From the IMG/VR virus record IMGVR_UViG_3300042691_054280: a DNA stretch of 64,000 nt. One strand, 5' to 3'. Position 1 is the first letter of the stretch; each line of letters opens with the position of its first letter. The DNA comes from an uncultured virus (IMG/VR IMGVR_UViG_3300042691_054280) (taxonomy: Duplodnaviria; Heunggongvirae; Uroviricota; Caudoviricetes; Crassvirales). This document shows positions 8,087-64,000 of this stretch, in pieces. The position numbers and the translations under genes are program-made. The notes below the pieces were generated by a model, which saw only the letters and a list, made by a program, of their open reading frames with translations, was not told the DNA's origin and did not search any database.

Positions 8087-8473
8087 ATGAACAGAGAGAT
8101 ATTGTTTCGCGGTCTTCGGACTGACGGTAAGGGATGGGTGTATGGATGTCTTGTTATCGTTGAGCAATCTTGCTTTATTCACCGATCCGAAAAAAGAAAA
8201 GGTAGTCTTGACGATTTTATTTGGCAAGAAAGCGTCGAAGTCCTCCCCTCCTCAGTAGGTCAGTTCACCGGAGCGCCCGGTAAAAACGTGGACAAGGTTT
8301 GGAAAGGCGACAAGGTAGATGTTGGTGACGGAGTGACTCGTGTGGTGGTTTGGGACGATTACGATTACGGGTTCACGCTTTCGCCTATTTACGAGGCGCT
8401 AACATTTGGCGATTTGGCCGCAAGAAACAGACTTTATGTGACCGGCAACATTCACGAAGGAGGTAATCCATGA
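8087..8473 (+). CDS. YopX family protein
   Basis: MNREILFRG...GWVYG...VGQFTG...VTGNIHE pattern typical of phage YopX. Confidence 0.85.
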   Translation: MNREILFRGLRTDGKGWVYGCLVIVEQSCFIHRSEKRKGSLDDFIWQESVEVLPSSVGQFTGAPGKNVDKVWKGDKVDVGDGVTRVVVWDDYDYGFTLSPIYEALTFGDLAARNRLYVTGNIHEGGNP

Positions 8474-52124: not shown

Positions 52125-54137
52125 TTACTTATAGATTCTATCGAACCATTCGTTTGAGCTATTGTCTTTTGTTGCAAAAGTCAGCTCTTTGTTGTGAAGT
52201 TCCCTGATGTGATACATGGCTATCATAAGTGCCATGACTCGGTCAAAGTTTCCCTTTCGGTTAAACTTGATCAGCTCCTGCAGCAATGCCGTGTCATAAA
52301 TCTTCTGAAGGTTTAGCGTAATTTCCCCATCTTCATTGGCGCCGCGGCCTGAGACCAACCAGTCCCGGATGTAGATTTCACCCTGGCCTTTTCGTTGTTC
52401 GGTCATGTGCATGCCGTACTGCCGCTTGACAGTTTTACTTTGCAGGTCTTTTTTGTCCAGCATTTCGAACTCTTCCTGCAGCAAATGCAGCTTCCTGAAA
52501 CGTTTTGCGTACGGAATTACTTCTCCGCGGTCGTTCTCAAATCCGATTTTGGCGTTGTAGTATTCCGCCAGCATAAACAGGGTGTAGTTGTAGTCATCCT
52601 GGTTTTCCGGCCGGCCTACGTATGAGGCCACAATTAAATCATCGGGTTTACTGAGGTTATTCGGGACCTTGAGAACGTACGCAGCACCCAAAGAGATTTC
52701 GTTGCTGGTTTTACCATGGGCGTACGGGTCGTGTCCAAGGATGTACAGGTTTTTCGGAGTTATCCCAACTTTTATCCCGTTGTCATCTATGTCGGCTTTG
52801 AACGGAGGTTCGTATATTACTACGGCTCCCGTAAGATTATCCCCTTTTCTGTGAGGATAAGCTTTAATAGCACGTGCTTCAGAGTCTGGCCGGAACTTTA
52901 CTTTTCCGGAAACGTCCCGATATAGTACTCCAACCACACCGATTTTATCCAGGTTGCCGGCAACTACCCGGTTGTATTGTTCTTTTAGCGACGTGACATC
53001 AAAGTAGTTGGCTGTTACCTGAAGAGTTGCTTCTTGAGGATTGAATGGGTGTTCAGCAATGTACTGATCGTATGATTTTGGATCACCGGCTTTTTTCTTG
53101 TTCTCTCGTTGACTTTCCTCGTACTCGATCGCCGATTCCTCGAGACTATTACCGTTTTTGTCTATGAATCCATCCAGATTTTTGGTAATAGGCACGAAGA
53201 AACCACATTCCGTACCCATGGCGCCCGGGTCCCACACGTTTTCAAATGCCATGCAGTCATAAGCTTCCGGATGATAGAACAGTTCTTCAAGGCCTTCAAA
53301 TCCAGGACCTTCTTCACCACCGGTACCAAAAGCAATCATGGTTCCAAGTGTTTTTGAACCTTGCCTCATGGTAGGCATGGCAATTTCCCATGCTTTTAAG
53401 AGCCCGGTAAAAGATCCGGCTTCTTCAAAGAACATCAGCTCACCGGCTTTACCACGAATTTTGTTGGGATTGTCCTTTAGCGACAGACCTATAATCTGGG
53501 ATTTGAACCCCATGGTTACATCGGAGCCGTTGATGTTCCGTTTGTAGCCGGCTTGCTTGTGAAGATCCCGGTCTTTTACTCGAGGTTGTCTCCAGGCCGT
53601 GTGCTCATCGTTAAATGAGAGCATTTCCCACGTTTTTGACAGAATACCGTCCCCCGTAAGGTACTCTTTCTGCTCAGCTACTACAAAATTTCTGGAATTG
53701 CGCAGATGGTAGTAGTTTCTGGCCATCATCGAAGCCGCTTTGTAGGAATATCCTTTTCGGCGGGCCTTTAATACTGCAATGTGCTTGTTCGTTTTTCGAG
53801 CTTTGTCAATTGCATGGAAAAATTCCCAGTCTCCGTCGTAAAATCGTGGAAAATCATACTCACGAGTGGACACAATTGAGCCATCTGGCTGCTCTTCGTC
53901 TGAAACTAGTGCAATCGGACAGTAGTTGAGGTAGAAATAGTGGTATCCGGTAATGGTTATGCCGGCTGCAGTGTAACCATGCAGGCATCTATGCTGCTCT
54001 TCTTCCCAGAATTCCAGATACTGCTTTGTTCCCTCAATTGCCTTGGTGTATTTACCCATTTCTCTAAATGCCGCAGCGGCAGGACTGAGAAGATGGGTGT
54101 CAACAAAGTTGTATTTGGTCAGAATCGGAAGACTCAT
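52125..54137 (-). CDS. terL: terminase large subunit
   Basis: ITGYHYFYLNY, Walker A KARRKGYS, Walker B FFEEAG, FGTGG, and nuclease GHDPY and NFDRVMA motifs. Confidence 0.95.
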   Translation of the reverse strand: MSLPILTKYNFVDTHLLSPAAAAFREMGKYTKAIEGTKQYLEFWEEEQHRCLHGYTAAGITITGYHYFYLNYCPIALVSDEEQPDGSIVSTREYDFPRFYDGDWEFFHAIDKARKTNKHIAVLKARRKGYSYKAASMMARNYYHLRNSRNFVVAEQKEYLTGDGILSKTWEMLSFNDEHTAWRQPRVKDRDLHKQAGYKRNINGSDVTMGFKSQIIGLSLKDNPNKIRGKAGELMFFEEAGSFTGLLKAWEIAMPTMRQGSKTLGTMIAFGTGGEEGPGFEGLEELFYHPEAYDCMAFENVWDPGAMGTECGFFVPITKNLDGFIDKNGNSLEESAIEYEESQRENKKKAGDPKSYDQYIAEHPFNPQEATLQVTANYFDVTSLKEQYNRVVAGNLDKIGVVGVLYRDVSGKVKFRPDSEARAIKAYPHRKGDNLTGAVVIYEPPFKADIDDNGIKVGITPKNLYILGHDPYAHGKTSNEISLGAAYVLKVPNNLSKPDDLIVASYVGRPENQDDYNYTLFMLAEYYNAKIGFENDRGEVIPYAKRFRKLHLLQEEFEMLDKKDLQSKTVKRQYGMHMTEQRKGQGEIYIRDWLVSGRGANEDGEITLNLQKIYDTALLQELIKFNRKGNFDRVMALMIAMYHIRELHNKELTFATKDNSSNEWFDRIYK

Positions 54138-58047: not shown

Positions 58048-59118
58048 TTACAAAAATACTACATTGTCCGGAGTCCGCATAGCAGGCTCGAACAAAAGTG
58101 TTCGGGTCTTCATGTCAAAGTAGGCATGGTAAATCAGGTTTTTACCCTGTGCCGGCAGCTCTTCAATTTGCAATTCGAGAATTGCGAATTCTCTGTCGTA
58201 CTGCGGAACAAATACCCGTGGATTTTGTTCATCACCAGACTGCATTGGCCCTACGAGTTCGCAAAGCCCATAATTTCCGGCTTCAGATCCTCCGTTTACT
58301 GCTGTTTCTTTGGTGCAATCGTTGTACATCTTCCAACGTGCCACATAATCACTTCCAGTTTTCCCCACAGCAGTGACGTAGTTTCCGTAACCTGTTCCCG
58401 AGAACGGTTTTCCATTGATGTAAACCTGCCCGGCGTACACGTTGAGGGAATCTCCGGAATTGAAGATTTCGAGAAATATACTTGTGATGTGTGTTTCCGG
58501 ATCACGCTCTACACCGTAGTAGTAATCAGTGTCCCACTGATAAATTGTCTCGACACTGACTTTGGCCATGGCTGCCAGCTCTTCAACTGCGAACTCTCTT
58601 CGGACAGTAATCTGTCGTGAGTTTGAAGCGCTTACCGGCCGTGTCGGGTCAAAGTTTGGGTTGGCTTCACGAACGAGAAACGTGTAGCTGTCTGGACGAC
58701 TTTGCATTTCGAACACCCATTTGCTCAGCTGCGGACTGAAATATACGTACATGCGTCCTTCCGGAGTAGTGTGGATTTTTGTAGTGCCATTTGTAGTCAT
58801 TGCAAACGACACTTCCGGATTTACCCATTCGAGTTTTCCGGTTTCCAGGTTTTCTCCAACGTAGGCGTAGTTGCGTTCGTGCTGATAGGTTTCTACGAAA
58901 TTCAATGCATAATCTCCGGCACGCTGATATTTGCTTTGTCGTACCACACGGTAGTACTGCAACTCGAGCTGACCAGTGGTTTGATTGCGTTTGCTCACTG
59001 GCTGCAGACCGAACGAGTTTACGCGCATTTCCTGCACTACTACATTGGCTAGTTTAGTGATAACATCTGTTTCAAGGCCTGACAGGCTTTTGATTTTTTC
59101 GATTTCTACTTGGGTCAT
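58048..59118 (-). CDS. hypothetical protein (possibly structural)
   Basis: 356-aa beta-rich ORF followed by a terminator. Confidence 0.7.
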   Translation of the reverse strand: MTQVEIEKIKSLSGLETDVITKLANVVVQEMRVNSFGLQPVSKRNQTTGQLELQYYRVVRQSKYQRAGDYALNFVETYQHERNYAYVGENLETGKLEWVNPEVSFAMTTNGTTKIHTTPEGRMYVYFSPQLSKWVFEMQSRPDSYTFLVREANPNFDPTRPVSASNSRQITVRREFAVEELAAMAKVSVETIYQWDTDYYYGVERDPETHITSIFLEIFNSGDSLNVYAGQVYINGKPFSGTGYGNYVTAVGKTGSDYVARWKMYNDCTKETAVNGGSEAGNYGLCELVGPMQSGDEQNPRVFVPQYDREFAILELQIEELPAQGKNLIYHAYFDMKTRTLLFEPAMRTPDNVVFL

Positions 59119-59149
59119 GGGTTATAGTTTTCAGCTAAAGTAGCCAATT

Positions 59150-59437
59150 TTATTCAATCGGTGGTTCTTCTACCGGAATTTCTGAATCCACCTCAAATTC
59201 GTTAGGACCTCTGATGATCGCGTTATACTGAGATAGCGTAAGAGTTGTAGTGGTTTCGACCCGGGCAGCAGCAGGAGGGAGGATTCCGTCGTTTATAACT
59301 ATTTGCTGCTTTGCTATAATCCTACTTTCTTCGACGCTGGCTGTAAAATCAGCATTTTCGGCCTGTCTGGTAAGAGTTACTCTGGCCAGCATTCCAGATG
59401 GATTTGTGTACGCTATTCTGAATTGGTAGTAGATCAT
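59150..59437 (-). CDS. hypothetical protein
   Basis: 95 aa; ATGA overlap with the fibre-like gene. Confidence 0.6.
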   Translation of the reverse strand: MIYYQFRIAYTNPSGMLARVTLTRQAENADFTASVEESRIIAKQQIVINDGILPPAAARVETTTTLTLSQYNAIIRGPNEFEVDSEIPVEEPPIE

Positions 59438-61056
59438 CGCTTCTGATTTAGTGACACTCCGAGCATGTGAGCTGTCCAGTTTTTTGGAGTCGTTCCAACT
59501 AGACTACTTATCCTTATTTTAGGATAGCCGGCAAAGTTGTTTGATACTCTTGTAAACCTGTAAACTGCAGAGTATGTAATTCCGTTAGTAGAACTGAAAA
59601 ACGTCACGTTTCCATTATTGCCATGGTTCCAGATCCCTAGATACTGTTTTGTAGTAGTCGCTACTGCAGTTACCACGTTTACAGCCAATCCTCCACCGGT
59701 ATTAATGACGTCAATTTCCCACACGTTTGCAAACGTAGCAAATGCTGGAGTTTTCCATATGTAACCATTCCCTACCCAACTTCCAGAGTTACTCTCAAGG
59801 CCTACCCCACAAACTACATCTTGCAAAGCAGTTGGAGTTGGGGTGGCATCTACAATGGCCAGCATAACCATCGGGAATTGACCATTCAAGTTTAAAGCAT
59901 TGTTACCACTTCCATGTCTGATTGCCATTCCCCCTACTGTATTACCAGTTACAGTTGAACCGGTGCTTAACTGCACACCACCCAGATCAAAGTTTCCAAG
60001 GTTACCGCTACTCTGTATTCCGGAAGCAGCTCCGGAAGATATCCAAGACATGTAGGTAGTACTGAATACAACAGTAGGGCTTACCCTGTTCTGAGGACCT
60101 GAAGTAAAGTGATCCACCACATCCAAACCTCCCCAATTACCATAAGACATTTGACTCCACCTGGTGCCGTTGTACAAAAACGTGATGTCCCGGCCAGGAA
60201 GTAAGAAGTAAGAAGTTTGATGTTGTAGCCTGAACCTGTTAGCTGCAGTACTCGTTGGAGAGTCGTGATCAATAATCAGCAGCTGATCAGTTGCCGCATT
60301 GACAATTGTAACCATTTGGCCGGCAACCCCATTTGTCAATCCCCCGATCGACACAATGTTATTGGCATTGGTCGGAGTAATCCGTATGACTTTTGTAATA
60401 GTCGTAGTTCCTGGCCAACCAGCTGGTGTGTAATTATCTTCCCGGGCATTCGCTGTACTCACCGAAATTACACCCGGGTCCGTAACCACAGTCAGATCAG
60501 CCAGAGTCAGCGCTCGAAATGTTGGGATTGCTGCACTACCTGAGCTAGGCCCTGCAAACACAAGATTGGCTGCCTGTGTATTGAGCCCAATTGTAATAGT
60601 CCCTGATGTGCTAATTGGATTTCCGGCAAGACTGAAAATAGACGGTACTGCCAAGTTTACACTTGTAACCGTACCCGTACCACCCGTCGGAAAAGTCTGC
60701 AGATTACCAGTCCCATCAATGTATTGTGCACTAGTGCCGGCTCCGGTAACCGTAAAAGTCCCTGATCCTACAACCGGACTGCCCACAACTGTAAAAGCCG
60801 GTGGAAGACTCAATCCGATCGTTCCGCCGCCTCCTGAAGAGTTTATTGTCAGGGTCCCATCCGAATTCTGAACAAGAGTTACATTACTACCGGCAACCAA
60901 CAAATCAGTCAAGTACTTGAACACAAACGTTTTTGGACGTGATGTCTTCGAGTAAGCCGTAAGTATTTGATTGTGCCGAATGTTATCCGGACGATCGACA
61001 TTAAAGTTCGACTTATCCAGATCGATCAGATCTTTCAGGCTCAGCGATTTTGCCAT
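59434..61056 (-). CDS. fibre-like structural protein
   Basis: 540 aa, Gly/Ser/Thr-rich; GTVTSVNL...GNPISTSGTIT...VFAGPSSGSAAIPTFRAL fibre repeats; beta-rich C-terminal domain. Confidence 0.7.
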   Translation of the reverse strand: MAKSLSLKDLIDLDKSNFNVDRPDNIRHNQILTAYSKTSRPKTFVFKYLTDLLVAGSNVTLVQNSDGTLTINSSGGGGTIGLSLPPAFTVVGSPVVGSGTFTVTGAGTSAQYIDGTGNLQTFPTGGTGTVTSVNLAVPSIFSLAGNPISTSGTITIGLNTQAANLVFAGPSSGSAAIPTFRALTLADLTVVTDPGVISVSTANAREDNYTPAGWPGTTTITKVIRITPTNANNIVSIGGLTNGVAGQMVTIVNAATDQLLIIDHDSPTSTAANRFRLQHQTSYFLLPGRDITFLYNGTRWSQMSYGNWGGLDVVDHFTSGPQNRVSPTVVFSTTYMSWISSGAASGIQSSGNLGNFDLGGVQLSTGSTVTGNTVGGMAIRHGSGNNALNLNGQFPMVMLAIVDATPTPTALQDVVCGVGLESNSGSWVGNGYIWKTPAFATFANVWEIDVINTGGGLAVNVVTAVATTTKQYLGIWNHGNNGNVTFFSSTNGITYSAVYRFTRVSNNFAGYPKIRISSLVGTTPKNWTAHMLGVSLNQKR

Positions 61057-61060
61057 ATTG

Positions 61061-61068
61061 CAAATCTA
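61061..61068 (-). promoter_or_regulatory. -7 box (TAGATTTG), 4 nt before the first late-module ATG
   Basis: Minus strand reads TAGATTTG-CAAT-ATG. Confidence 0.7.
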
Positions 61069-61376
61069 CGATGTTCTTTCCTTCTCGGGCACACCTCTCC
61101 CCTTGGGATTTTTGAGGTTTCACAACAGATTTTGTAAGGTGCCGTTTTGAGCCTTCGAGGGGGCATTTCTGTCAGCCTGTAGCCTTATTCCCTCCCACCC
61201 TACTATACTATTGCCGTTTTTGCTCCTATCGGGGACAACTTCCAGTAACTATGTAGGTAAAACGTTACCGGTAGAACCCGACTTCTGCCCCTCTAACTAC
61301 CTGACTGGCCATCAAGGGGGATCGATTGGAATCGGAAGCAGTGCCAAATATACTCCAAAAAATTTCTCGAGCAACA

Positions 61377-61407
61377 CTTGACTTTCAAAAAATATTGATT
61401 ACATTTG
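61377..61407 (+). promoter_or_regulatory. full Bacteroidota sigma-A promoter
   Basis: CTTG-19 nt-TACATTTG; closely resembles the groES promoter. Confidence 0.75.
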
Positions 61408-61410
61408 TAT

Positions 61411-61481
61411 CCCACTCTACATATACGGCCATCGTATGTGAACCGAACTAGCCCTGAATCAGCCCGGGGCTTTTTCGTTTT
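61411..61481 (+). ncRNA. candidate ~70-nt two-hairpin small RNA
   Basis: Promoter, then hairpin CATATACG-GCCAT-CGTATGTG, AACCGAA linker, and terminator AGCCCTG-8nt-CGGGGCT-TTTT; no ORF. Confidence 0.65.
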
Positions 61482-61657
61482 CTGGACTTTCCATTCCGGC
61501 AAGGCTTTCAGAGAACTCACCTCCCAAAATTTTCCCCAAAATTTTTTTCGGAACCGGTTTTGAAAATTTGATCTGTGGTTTTGAGTGTGGGTACCTACGT
61601 ATTCAAAGACCCCGGCTAACAAGGGAGCGGGCAAACATCCCCCGTTCCCAACAAACC

Positions 61658-61813
61658 ATGTGGACAGTTTTCCTCTCGCCGAAAACCGGCATTCTCATCT
61701 TCACTCAACGTCAATGGACCAAGGACGGTCCCGTTGAGTCCAAGATCTACGTCGATCCCAACGACAAGGATCGAGCAAAGGCCGAGGCCTTTGCAGCGAC
61801 GCTCAACCCATAA
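61658..61813 (+). CDS. 51-aa protein, first gene of the + strand early-type block
   Basis: ATG after an A/C-rich leader (ACAAACC); GC3-rich codons; flanked by hairpins. Confidence 0.55.
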   Translation: MWTVFLSPKTGILIFTQRQWTKDGPVESKIYVDPNDKDRAKAEAFAATLNP

Positions 61814-61814
61814 G

Positions 61815-62460
61815 GGTTGGGCTTCGCCCATTGGGGGCAAGTCTGAATTAACTACGGTTAGTTCAGGCTTGCTCTTTGTCCTAGAACTGTAGTACAAGAG
61901 ACTAGGGTAAGCTCCCTTACACTTGTTGTACAAAGTGATACAATTACATTGGCTTATTGTTATGATTGTTTGTGAAGGCAATCATCAATGTAGTATTACA
62001 GTTCACTCTTCTGCCTGGCTTGGGTGAGTACTTTGTATTCACTCAAGCTATGGCATTTGGGTTCTGAGTTAACAACTGAGTTAGCTTCCGAGTTATATCG
62101 TGAGTTAAGTTGTGAGTTGACCAGGAATCCCTTCACCATTTTCGAGGTCTCAGCCATACCTCGAATTCCAAATGGTTATTCTATGGCACTTTAACTAACC
62201 TAACCAATAGCCTGGTGGCATCACTGGCAGTTTTCAACTCAGCCTCGAGCAAGCTGAGCCATTTTACACAAACTACTAGCTCTCTAATTAACTCTTTAAC
62301 CTCTCACAGATGAAAGAACTTATTAAAGTCTGTGACCATGGCACAGATCGGGATAGCTGGTAGTCCTTACCCAAACTCTATCACTCAGCATAAAGCAGAT
62401 TCTCCGCGATCTGTGTCTCGTTAATAGCCCGAGATTATGCTGGTGATAGAGTTTACTTTG
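61815..62460 (+). ncRNA. candidate structured RNA tract
   Basis: At least six long stems whose mismatches are G-U on the + strand; cUACGg and GUGA tetraloops; no ORF of 60 aa or more on + in the track. Confidence 0.5.
62064..62120. repeat. five GAGTT(A/G) cores at exact 12-bp period
   Basis: GAGTT at 62066, 62078, 62090, 62102 and 62114 with variable spacers. Confidence 0.9.
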
Positions 62461-62482
62461 TATTCCACTTAACTTCAATTAC

Positions 62483-62821
62483 ATGAAACCACGGTACTGG
62501 AAATACTACTGCATTTTAAACGGTGATTCAGAGGTAAAAGTGTATCGACATATAGTTGAAGGCAACAATGTCAATCATCTTAAACCTTTGAAAGGTGCAA
62601 ACAGACAAGCAAAAGAGCTTGTAACAGTGATTACTGTCAAAGTTCCCATGGAGACATTTGAAGCCTTCAAAGAAATGTTTGACTCTTCTGGACTTCAAAC
62701 AGATGATCGGTTTTTCACTGCATCTTTTGGTCTGCATAAAAGGCCAATTGCAATGGAGTGGGAAAAAATCAAATCTGAAATTCTACAAAAATTTCCTTTA
62801 ACACCAATTCTTACATCATGA
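62483..62821 (+). CDS. hypothetical early protein
   Basis: 112-aa ORF with an AT-rich leader. Confidence 0.6.
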   Translation: MKPRYWKYYCILNGDSEVKVYRHIVEGNNVNHLKPLKGANRQAKELVTVITVKVPMETFEAFKEMFDSSGLQTDDRFFTASFGLHKRPIAMEWEKIKSEILQKFPLTPILTS

Positions 62822-62952
62822 AAAAACTCATCCTTTTGGTACTCGTTGCTATCATGGCTACATCGTGCGCTACTACTAAGCGTGGCTATGATTACAAAGC
62901 GCACCAAAAACGTTCTCAGCAATTCAAGAAGCATGCTGGGTGCTGGCATTAA
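62818..62952 (+). CDS. 44-aa lipoprotein
   Basis: MKKLILLVLVAIMATSC lipobox; ATGA overlap; not in the ORF track. Confidence 0.7.
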   Translation: MKKLILLVLVAIMATSCATTKRGYDYKAHQKRSQQFKKHAGCWH

Positions 62953-62981
62953 TCTGCTTCTCAACCAAATTCCATCTCACA

Positions 62982-63245
62982 ATGAAAAAGATTTTGCTCT
63001 TTCTTCTGCTTTTGGCCGGCATGGCCTCTTGCAACATTAATCCGGAACGTCCTGTCCGGATTCTCTACACAGGTGAAAAAGCCTTTGTGGAATTGCCTCA
63101 CGATTTGTATCGGCCAACCGATACATTAGTTGTGACCTATGATGTCCCACTGGACAAATGGAAAGTGGACACTTACTGGCAAAAATTTGCCGGTAACCGC
63201 AATCCAAGCGGAACGTGTTTCAAAGCAGTATTCATCCAAAACTAA
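62982..63245 (+). CDS. small lipoprotein
   Basis: MKKILLFLLLLAGMASC lipobox; start re-assigned. Confidence 0.75.
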   Translation: MKKILLFLLLLAGMASCNINPERPVRILYTGEKAFVELPHDLYRPTDTLVVTYDVPLDKWKVDTYWQKFAGNRNPSGTCFKAVFIQN

Positions 63246-63253
63246 ATACTGCA

Positions 63254-63472
63254 ATGAACATTACTATTCTCAGACCGTATTATCTTAACGGTCGAACCGA
63301 GTTCCTGAAAGTAGGCGCTGTGGTTGCGGATAATGCTGAACAAGCAATCCGCGGGATGAGCCGCCGGTTCAATCGTACTACTGCCCATCCAATTGAGGAT
63401 GGGATTGTACTCGGTTTCCCTGACGGAAGCCGCTATCAGGTCCACGACGAACAGCTGCTCCCTGTCACGTGA
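63254..63472 (+). CDS. hypothetical protein
   Basis: Start re-assigned to MNITILRP. Confidence 0.55.
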   Translation: MNITILRPYYLNGRTEFLKVGAVVADNAEQAIRGMSRRFNRTTAHPIEDGIVLGFPDGSRYQVHDEQLLPVT

Positions 63473-63548
63473 ACCTACCATTTTCAAAAGCCTCGGTGAT
63501 AGCAATATCACTGGGGCTTTGCTTTATTCACCAATTTTCTCTCTCCAA

Positions 63549-63878
63549 ATGAAAACAAATCTTTACGAAGCCGATTCTTATCTTGCCAATGCGCGGGATA
63601 AGATCGCAACCAAGCACAATCGAAAAATTCTGACTTGGTTCACATTGAATCTGATCGTTATGATCACATTCTGCATTTTTATGGCCATGCATGTCAAAAA
63701 CAATGACATTCCTGGTTGGCTGGGCTTTCTCCTCTTTGTTGTAGGAGTATATCAGGCAGTATTGACTGCTGAACTTGCACTCAAATTGCAGGTAAAAAGA
63801 CGAAAGAGTAAATCGACTCTCATACGTAATAAACCCAGCCAGACAGAAGTGAAGCTCAAGCATTGGCTTCCAAATTGA
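63549..63878 (+). CDS. 2-TM membrane protein
   Basis: Start re-assigned to MKTNLYE; two hydrophobic helices and a basic tail. Confidence 0.6.
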   Translation: MKTNLYEADSYLANARDKIATKHNRKILTWFTLNLIVMITFCIFMAMHVKNNDIPGWLGFLLFVVGVYQAVLTAELALKLQVKRRKSKSTLIRNKPSQTEVKLKHWLPN

Positions 63879-64000
63879 CAAAAGTCTGGGGCTGGGAGAG
63901 GTACTCGTTCCCGGCGAGGATGGAATTCAGCACTCCATACACCTCTTCACGATTTTTTATGTGAGTTTCAACCGCTACACGTAAGAATCTGAGCATCATA

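Follow-up and report, generated by a model that had tools for sequence, protein, structure and literature searches.

A chain of about nine stem-loop domains in the early region of a crAss-like phage most likely works as RNA, since its long hairpins fit one strand only. The chain, here called the array, extends over ~660 nt from 61796 to 62454 on the + strand of the window, that is, of the whole 64,000-nt stretch of uncultured virus DNA that was analysed. Folding energy, strand bias and the context of the phage family support an RNA-level element of the early region. As for function, we tentatively place first a role as cis-acting duplex hairpins, which would process or stabilize the rightward early transcript in an RNase III-like manner.

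The phage and its late/early switch region

Few known viruses are as abundant as the crAss-like phages, and little is understood of the early programme that their virion-packaged RNA polymerase runs. The window carries a structural gene block on the - strand, including the terminase (52125-54137), the portal, the major head protein and giant proteins of 1528-2392 aa, and small genes on the + strand. The terminase shares ~40% identity with terminases of Bacteroides, Flavobacterium and Cellulophaga crAss-like phages (164 matching records, all at <60% identity), and terminases with 62-78% identity are found in >500 environmental viral contigs. The stretch is present in 20 sequencing runs, and its sequence is unchanged in freshwater runs from 11 studies. 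Judging from the terminase relatives and the unchanged sequence in freshwater runs, the phage is a freshwater member of the Crassvirales. The terminase relatives and promoter-like TAnnTTTG motifs point to a Bacteroidota host.

Contigs from the four runs examined are identical to the window, and the population is clonal over the parts covered. The lower word shares of runs reflect patchy cover and not divergence, and thus there are no population variants to compare. The clear RNA library X20 yielded a single 151-nt phage contig (60977-61127), and contigs of this kind cannot show transcription. Contigs from X19 and X20, which are RNA or possibly DNA libraries, cover 60977-61189 only, and the array lies outside the covered part.

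A gene of 540 aa closes the structural block on the - strand, with its start at 61056. The late/early switch region comprises the 1.4 kb from 61056 to 62483. It is the only large non-coding gap that separates divergently oriented gene blocks. It begins with a conserved non-coding element (61085-61365), followed by two promoter-like sites placed back to back (61374-61345 on the - strand and 61378-61407 on the + strand) and by a small hairpin with a terminator-like site on the + strand (61450-61471 plus a T-run). A conserved stretch that is 84-88% identical in relatives (61579-61645) lies 5' of a 51-aa early gene on the + strand (61658-61813), which is directly upstream of the array. The hairpins occupy an untranslated gap of 669 nt on the + strand, between 61813 and 62483. 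The gap is closed by a 112-aa orphan gene, also on the + strand (62483-62821), with an ATG at 62483 and a TGA stop. The array thus lies in the early region, in sense orientation to the early genes.

The 51-aa protein has 52-aa homologues in the related contigs L118 and L166, with 31-33% identity and 15 invariant columns. The alignment has no gaps within the 51 residues, and the homologues carry one extra C-terminal residue. With these homologues, the 51-aa ORF is a real conserved early gene, separate from the ncRNA. The 112-aa protein matched only itself among 5.8 billion protein clusters and had no PHROG or Pfam match.

Extent and folding of the array

The original prediction was a dense run of RNA-type hairpins at 61815-62260, with six named elements. 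Five of the six are present and better than shuffles, and the array is wider than first stated. The stretch 61815-62260 folds better than dinucleotide shuffles on both strands, with -168 kcal/mol and z -7.53 on + (0/100 shuffles as good) and -131 kcal/mol and z -4.14 on -. When 61690-62490 was folded with a span limit of 150 nt, structures extended beyond 61815-62260 on both sides, and the array was delimited as 61796-62454 because of these extra domains. Absent from the original list were the hairpin at 61796-61827, the 12-bp stem that closes 61884-62004, the hairpin at 62059-62130, and the domains at 62272-62364 and 62373-62454. Over this extent, the energy is -246.7 kcal/mol (z -12.3) on + and -211.8 kcal/mol (z -5.3) on - (20 shuffles each). 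In 120-nt sliding windows, the array reaches -62.8 kcal/mol. The background of 267 such windows over the whole 64 kb has a mean of -26.9, an sd of 5.8 and a minimum of -44.4.

The first domain is a 13-bp GC-rich hairpin (61796-61827, +). The 51-aa gene ends within its AUAA loop, which contains the stop codon. The hairpin has an energy of -21.7 kcal/mol with z -6.75 on + and of -18.4 with z -4.83 on -. A hairpin across the stop codon of the small gene is also present in the relatives L118 and L166. Next comes a 20-bp hairpin (61833-61876, +), which has G.U pairs on + only and is capped by a cUACGg tetraloop. It folds at -29.5 kcal/mol (z -10.87) on + and at -14.4 (z -5.88) on -. Its core of 18 ungapped pairs (61835-61874), with 3 G.T and 0 A.C and with a UACG loop closed by C-G, agrees with the original description.

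The following domain has three branches and spans 121 nt (61884-62004, +), with a 12-bp closing stem at 61884-95/61993-62004 (-37.8 kcal/mol, z -4.0 on +; -28.7, z -3.24 on -). The short stems that had been listed at 61880-61937 are weak alone and hold only as part of this domain. The predicted 10-bp hairpin with a GUGA loop (61962-71/61976-85) is found here, nested in TACATTG/CAATGTA (61945-61992). We take the two tetraloop-type loops of the array to be of the UNCG and GNRA classes.

A second 20-bp hairpin is located at 62012-62055 (+), where a stem of ~20 bp with G-U pairs had been expected. It has 20 pairs, 3 of them G.U, and a UUU loop, with ACTTTGTATTC at the apex (-28.6 kcal/mol, z -8.29 on +; -16.8, z -5.03 on -). 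Exact copies of ACTTTGTATTC occur only twice in the window, at 62030 and 62455. The second copy lies immediately 3' of the last domain and 18 nt upstream of the ATG at 62483.

An imperfect hairpin of 27 pairs (62059-62130), made of five direct (T)GAGTTR repeats with a 12-nt period, forms on the + strand only, with -26.6 kcal/mol and z -4.42 on + and -9.5 and z -0.18 on -. TGAGTTR is not enriched window-wide (21 sites vs 22.9 expected). However, 4 of these 21 sites, all exact copies, lie in a 55-nt part of 62059-62130.

The remaining domains are more even between the strands. A 14-pair hairpin with an internal loop, named in the original prediction, is present at 62135-62176, with no clear preference for either strand (z -4.79 on +, -3.29 on -). 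The weak region at 62183-62262 contains two small hairpins (z -0.05 on +, -1.41 on -). One of them is the predicted CTCAGC/GCTGAG, whose pairing exists, but in a domain for which 91/200 shuffles are as good. A domain with a 13-pair closing stem (62272-62364, +) has modest support (z -2.92 on +, -2.41 on -). The last domain (62373-62454) is Y-shaped, two small hairpins being enclosed by a stem of 19 bp. Its energy is -36.2 kcal/mol (z -8.15) on + and -35.7 (z -7.42) on -. The motif CUUUGU follows or sits in three of the hairpins, at 61833-76, 62012-55 and 62373-454.

Strand bias of the hairpins

To examine strand bias, stems were sought with equal scores for G.T and A.C. Nine were found, with 13 G.T vs 4 A.C. 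In the seven strong stems that are also part of the MFE fold, the count is 12 G.T vs 0 A.C, and all 12 transition mispairs are G.U on the + strand, in line with the claim that the mismatches are G-U on one strand. The rest of the window, divided into 79 chunks, gives 495 G.T vs 419 A.C. The 12:0 count (two-sided binomial ~5e-4) indicates that the G.U strand bias is real and unlikely to be due to chance. For four domains (61833-76, 61884-62004, 62012-55 and 62059-62130), the + strand has the advantage by 9 to 17 kcal/mol. Three domains are strand-symmetric (62135-76, 62272-364 and 62373-454).

Coding potential and known RNA families

The array stretch is non-coding. Its gap has no ATG-started ORF of >=45 aa on the + strand, and the + frames within the array are GTG- or TTG-started only and 32-56 aa long. 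Stop-codon reassignment occurs in some crAss-like lineages and was considered for both codons. Reading TAG as Q adds just a 68-aa frame and was rejected. Reading TGA as W opens a frame of 155 aa in which TGA occurs 6 times, yet TGA terminates the adjacent 112-aa gene, and this code was rejected as well.

A search of Rfam 15, which covers GOLLD, ROOL, Y RNA-like, ribozyme and riboswitch families, with window positions 60500-64000 at E <=10 returned two chance-level rows only, neither of them in 61796-62302. Their scores are 18.1 and 17.5 bits vs gathering scores of 80 and 60. The same search of the identical contig L004 at E <=1 gave no match. No tRNA or tmRNA was found in the array. A repeated mobile element was also rejected, as there is no second copy of the array in the window. 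Intrinsic terminators were sought on the + strand, where sites are found only at 61151 and 61450.

Homologues and the same gap in relatives

No match to 61060-62480 was found by blastn in 50,697 phage records. When 85, and then 176, loci of related phages were compared by blastn and nhmmer, only the identical contig matched beyond 61740. Viral contigs scanned with the 540-aa, 112-aa and 355-aa neighbours yielded the identical contig and two unrelated fibre-domain matches. In a metagenome scan based on the aligned 51-aa protein and its homologues, 530 patterns matched, and the 2 that were confirmed are the identical contig and the L118 contig. G001, the nearest of the virus records compared, is without the array region. 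Within the collections searched, similarity was found in the identical contig only, and the array itself appears to be lineage-specific.

In relatives, the gap after the homologue of the small gene contains a canonical terminator and then a hairpin of ~22 bp. Further on, many contigs have a Y-shaped hairpin followed by TTTGTAT, and then a pseudoknotted module, a tRNA or other non-coding sequence up to the next gene. In L094, the gap contains a tRNA-Gln. The Y-shaped hairpin with TTTGTAT is in the same relative place as the last domain of the array, a positional likeness only. The ~22-bp hairpin was aligned from nine distinct relatives, and 10/22 pairs are changed on both sides. It has 23 G.U cells on + and 0 on -, with an alifold energy of -26.3 on + vs -12.0 on -. 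These observations indicate selection for long RNA hairpins of + sense at the same position across the phage group. By analogy, not by homology, they make the RNA reading of the window array more credible. The hairpin of the relatives, which is conserved in freshwater and marine crAss-like contigs, is like the window stems in its relative position, stem length, small loop and G.U on + only, and U-rich or TTTGTA-type sequence follows it as in the window. However, it has no sequence similarity to the window hairpins, and each relative has one where the window has several.

Two conserved and covarying RNA motifs that are absent from Rfam were seen nearby. One is a late-operon leader and the other is the pseudoknotted module, which precedes early genes. 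The module is also present in the same phage 3.4 kb further right (L004 8350-8451, 76.2 bits, E 2e-17). Its model, R1, consists of P1, P2 and P3, a loop-to-tail pseudoknot and conserved junction sequences. As an identity for the array, this module was rejected, since the best R1 score in 60500-64000 is 5.6 bits (E 2; cmsearch with filters off).

Possible functions of the array

The array is located between two genes of the same orientation and has no terminator before it. In the simplest reading, it belongs to the early transcript and is not translated. Read-through into it is plausible, because there is no canonical terminator on the + strand in 61815-62480. A rightward early transcript from the promoter region of the 51-aa gene would span the hairpins. 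A double-strand-specific RNase of the RNase III type could then cut or bind the long duplexes, and the leftover hairpins may cap the flanking early mRNAs against exonucleases. Such cutting would uncouple the 51-aa and 112-aa genes, and a stable hairpin RNA would remain.

RNase III substrates are RNA duplexes of about two turns, around 20 bp. The hairpins at 61833-76 and 62012-55 have 20 pairs each, the stem at 62373-454 has 19 bp, and 62059-130 has 27 imperfect pairs. In the early-gene spacers of T7, hairpins are cut by RNase III and the remaining stems stabilize the mRNAs. Processing or stabilizing hairpins are placed first because the near-perfect ~20-bp duplexes correspond to this size class and to the T7 hairpins. 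An array of RNase III sites was one of the original suggestions, and among them it seems to fit the ~20-bp duplexes best. The classic RNase III sites of T7, however, have internal loops and are not perfect 20-bp duplexes. Three domains are as stable on the - strand, and 62183-262 is not significant, which also counts against this explanation.

A less probable explanation is an early ncRNA that acts in trans as a sponge, scaffold or decoy, after release from the transcript or after initiation at a start of its own. Titration of an RNA-binding protein by the five (U)GAGUUR repeats would be one example, and occupation of a host dsRNA sensor or nuclease by the duplexes another. The extreme predicted stability of the array is consistent with such an RNA, as are the five same-strand repeats, which have a fixed 12-nt spacing and pair only as + RNA. 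The gap of relatives holds independent RNA genes and modules (the tRNA-Gln of L094 and the pseudoknotted module), and the phage phi14:2, according to the accessible part of its study, makes abundant and persistent early non-coding RNAs (bioRxiv 10.1101/2020.03.07.982082). However, no own promoter or terminator was found in the scans, and conservation was not found beyond one clonal phage. The array is a string of simple hairpins and has neither the multi-stem junctions nor the pseudoknots of the conserved RNAs in its vicinity. Among the neighbours, PHROG and Pfam revealed no gene for an RNA-binding protein. A TROVE/Ro-type partner protein, an idea taken from the accessible part of the crAss001 paper (PMC8375218), was rejected after no Pfam match was found in 11 neighbouring proteins.

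Thus, of the structured ncRNA in the original prediction, the structure stands as beyond chance, strand-specific, non-coding and not in Rfam. A separate ncRNA gene is not supported, since the array lies between two + genes and is without its own promoter or terminator in the scans. Nothing in the analysis speaks for the anti-defence sponge. It is rather unlikely that the array forms a stand-alone, very stable early RNA within minutes of infection and occupies a host factor. In such an RNA, the ~20-bp duplexes would bait a dsRNA nuclease or sensor, and the five evenly spaced repeats would sponge an RNA-binding protein of the Bacteroidota host.

It is less likely again that the hairpins signal termination, pausing or insulation to the early polymerase, possibly the virion RNA polymerase. 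Such signals would time or limit read-through from the 51-aa gene into the next genes. In relatives, the homologue of this gene is followed by the canonical terminator and then by the long hairpin with a U-rich tail, and the CUUUGU after or in three hairpins of the window also favours this reading. In the accessible part of the phi14:2 study, the authors found no common early promoter motif (bioRxiv 10.1101/2020.03.07.982082), which likewise fits such signals. However, the scan finds no stem followed by a T-run on + inside 61815-62480, and the tails of the hairpins are U/C-mixed and not U-runs. Nine consecutive structures also exceed what insulation needs.

Comparably improbable is a function at the DNA level, such as an origin or partition-like site with iterons and cruciforms, operators, or hairpin promoters of the N4 type. 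The position in the only large non-coding gap between divergent gene blocks, the five TGAGTTR direct repeats at a fixed spacing of 12 bp, and the three domains that are equal on both strands would all suit such a site. The phi14:2 virion polymerase transcribes denatured DNA, as described in the part of the study that was accessible (bioRxiv 10.1101/2020.03.07.982082), and the early promoters of N4 are extruded hairpins (PMC4496689, accessible part). A function of double-stranded DNA, however, predicts no strand bias, and the observed G.U count is 12:0 with one hairpin on + only. According to the same part of the N4 paper, the promoters of its virion polymerase are template-strand hairpins with a stem of <=7 bp and a 3-nt loop, just upstream of the start (PMC4496689). 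The array stems have 10-20 bp and are stronger on the non-template (+) strand, and only 62012-55 has a 3-nt loop; N4-type promoters were rejected. A spacing of 12 bp is no helical repeat, and with a GC content of 0.35-0.49 the array region has no marked AT-rich stretch. A genome end or terminal repeat was also rejected, since the conserved motif lies at scattered positions in nine large related contigs, which is weak evidence that there is no fixed or shared terminus at this gap.

Least probable is hairpin-rich filler without selected function, produced by local inverted duplications in a hypervariable region of fast turnover: the array occurs in a single clonal lineage only, relatives carry other content in the corresponding gap and many related contigs break near here, but neutral decay should give A.C as often as G.U where 12:0 was counted, tetraloop-type loops are present, and the hairpin of relatives is kept by compensatory change.

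Comparison with known phage RNAs

Among known systems, processing hairpins of this kind would resemble those of T7. As in T7, long RNA hairpins are found in an untranslated spacer of what would be a polycistronic early phage transcript. The T7 hairpins are single and lie between genes, whereas the array has nine in a row. T7 belongs to another order and infects another host phylum, and there is no sequence relation.

The large phage RNAs GOLLD and ROOL (Rfam) are similar to the array in that they are hundreds of nt long, non-coding and phage-borne. A further likeness is that the region of the array holds tRNAs in relatives. They differ in having junction-rich folds, in contrast to the string of simple hairpins seen here, and the array is without an Rfam match or conservation.

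The closest case in the accessible literature, a positional precedent, is phi14:2, a Cellulophaga phage of the Steigviridae and of the same order. According to the accessible part of its study, rightward transcription of two long early intergenic regions exceeds that of most genes, and the RNAs are still present late (bioRxiv 10.1101/2020.03.07.982082). In the same text, the authors describe the 'functions' of these RNAs as 'to be determined' (bioRxiv 10.1101/2020.03.07.982082). The regions are g004-g005 and g005-g006, and small ORFs once annotated there were later removed by RefSeq (NC_021806). In both phages, a long non-coding stretch lies among small early genes on the sense strand; in the window it is the 669-nt gap between two small + genes beside the late/early switch. 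However, the phi14:2 regions are not unusually structured, with z 0.12 and -1.27 on +, compared with z -12 for the array, and for this reason the precedent is positional only. Expression was shown in phi14:2, whereas for the array it is predicted from sequence. No match between the array and phi14:2 was found by nhmmer. Two short matches by blastn are at chance level (E 0.006 and 0.34) and fall inside annotated genes, outside the two intergenic regions. A full-text search of an open-access library listed no other paper on early non-coding RNAs of crAss-like phages, and the accessible part of the crAss001 transcriptome paper mentions none (PMC8375218).

Taken with these systems, the array is a lineage-specific variant of a loosely known kind, the structured non-coding RNA in phage early regions. 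The surrounding locus is a hot spot of structured RNAs across the phage group. If the array were a stand-alone decoy, the long non-coding RNAs that crAss-like phages make early, so far without explanation, would gain a function. Among such RNAs, the array is an extreme and clearly delimited case in which to ask whether their role is in processing, in stability or as a decoy.

Candidate RNA elements around the start of the late operon

A candidate conserved structured RNA on the minus strand, at 61085-61365, immediately precedes the first late (structural) gene. Sequence comparison with related loci revealed an identity of 65-70% across approximately 20 relatives. Among 35 sequences, 24 of the 34 alifold pairs have changed on both sides, and these include long-range pairs. 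The orientation of the G.U cells (168 vs. 35) favours the minus strand. The alifold energy is -24.8 on this strand compared with -16.3 on the plus strand. An Rfam search gave no match for the element. It reads as a leader, approximately 280 nt long, to the 51-kb late operon, and is possibly an antitermination or regulatory RNA.

Many related viral contigs, such as L097, L100, L119, L120, L141, and L174, begin or stop close to the conserved leader, no more than a few hundred bases away. This clustering of contig ends suggests that assembly is broken by hypervariable sequence on the right of the leader. The phage population itself is widespread and nearly clonal. Contigs of freshwater runs from several studies match window positions 59000-64000 identically over all covered parts; the lone difference is a C>T change at position 59685, seen in a single run.

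Two promoter-like sites of the Bacteroidetes type stand back-to-back at 61374-61345 (minus strand) and 61378-61407 (plus strand). Further downstream on the plus strand lie a small hairpin and a terminator-like site (61450-61471 plus a T-run). The arrangement within 61345-61481 could represent a small RNA of approximately 60 nt or an attenuator. Further along, the segment 61523-61645 contains two 12-nt A/T-tract repeats in tandem and a palindrome. These are followed by a stretch of 41-68 nt with 84-88% identity in relatives, which lies immediately upstream of the small early gene (51 aa, 61658-61813, plus strand). This segment is likely an early promoter with a 5' UTR.

Hairpin and pseudoknotted module of related phages

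In related loci such as L093, L054, L009, L118, and L166, the gap after the small early gene contains a conserved hairpin of approximately 22 bp. Covariation is seen in 10 of its 22 pairs, one G.U pair is invariably retained, and G.U occurs on the plus strand only. Next to the hairpin, on its downstream side, comes a U-rich tail or TTTGTAATCAA.

The phage of the window itself has a pseudoknotted RNA module past the window end, at 8350-8451 of the identical contig L004, approximately 3.4 kb to the right of the hairpin array. The module consists of P1, P2, P3, a loop-to-tail pseudoknot, and a variable insert of tens to approximately 180 nt. In 14 sequences, pairing holds in 95.9% of cells and both sides have changed in 14 of 25 pairs, a number reached by none of 500 shuffles; one pseudoknot pair is AU in eight sequences and CG in six. 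R1, the covariance model built from this module, found 17 matches in 85 sources, namely L004 8350-8451 and 16 others in 13 related loci. The module is without an Rfam counterpart. It usually ends 25-60 nt upstream of a gene start, in one case upstream of a tRNA, and the downstream genes vary between copies. The module may be a ribozyme or an element of a 5' UTR.

tRNA, tRNA-like and ribozyme-like elements in relatives

One relative has a tRNA-Gln (L094 3026-3099, minus strand) in the gap corresponding to the hairpin array. In three others, a conserved 200-aa gene is followed by a tRNA-like gene whose anticodon loop is irregular (L091 4977-5058, L092 4386-4474, and L093 4701-4782). With 49.8 bits (E 2e-8), a score that does not reach the gathering score of 67.2, the minus strand of L129 474-532 in a relative's early region resembles the twister-P1 ribozyme.
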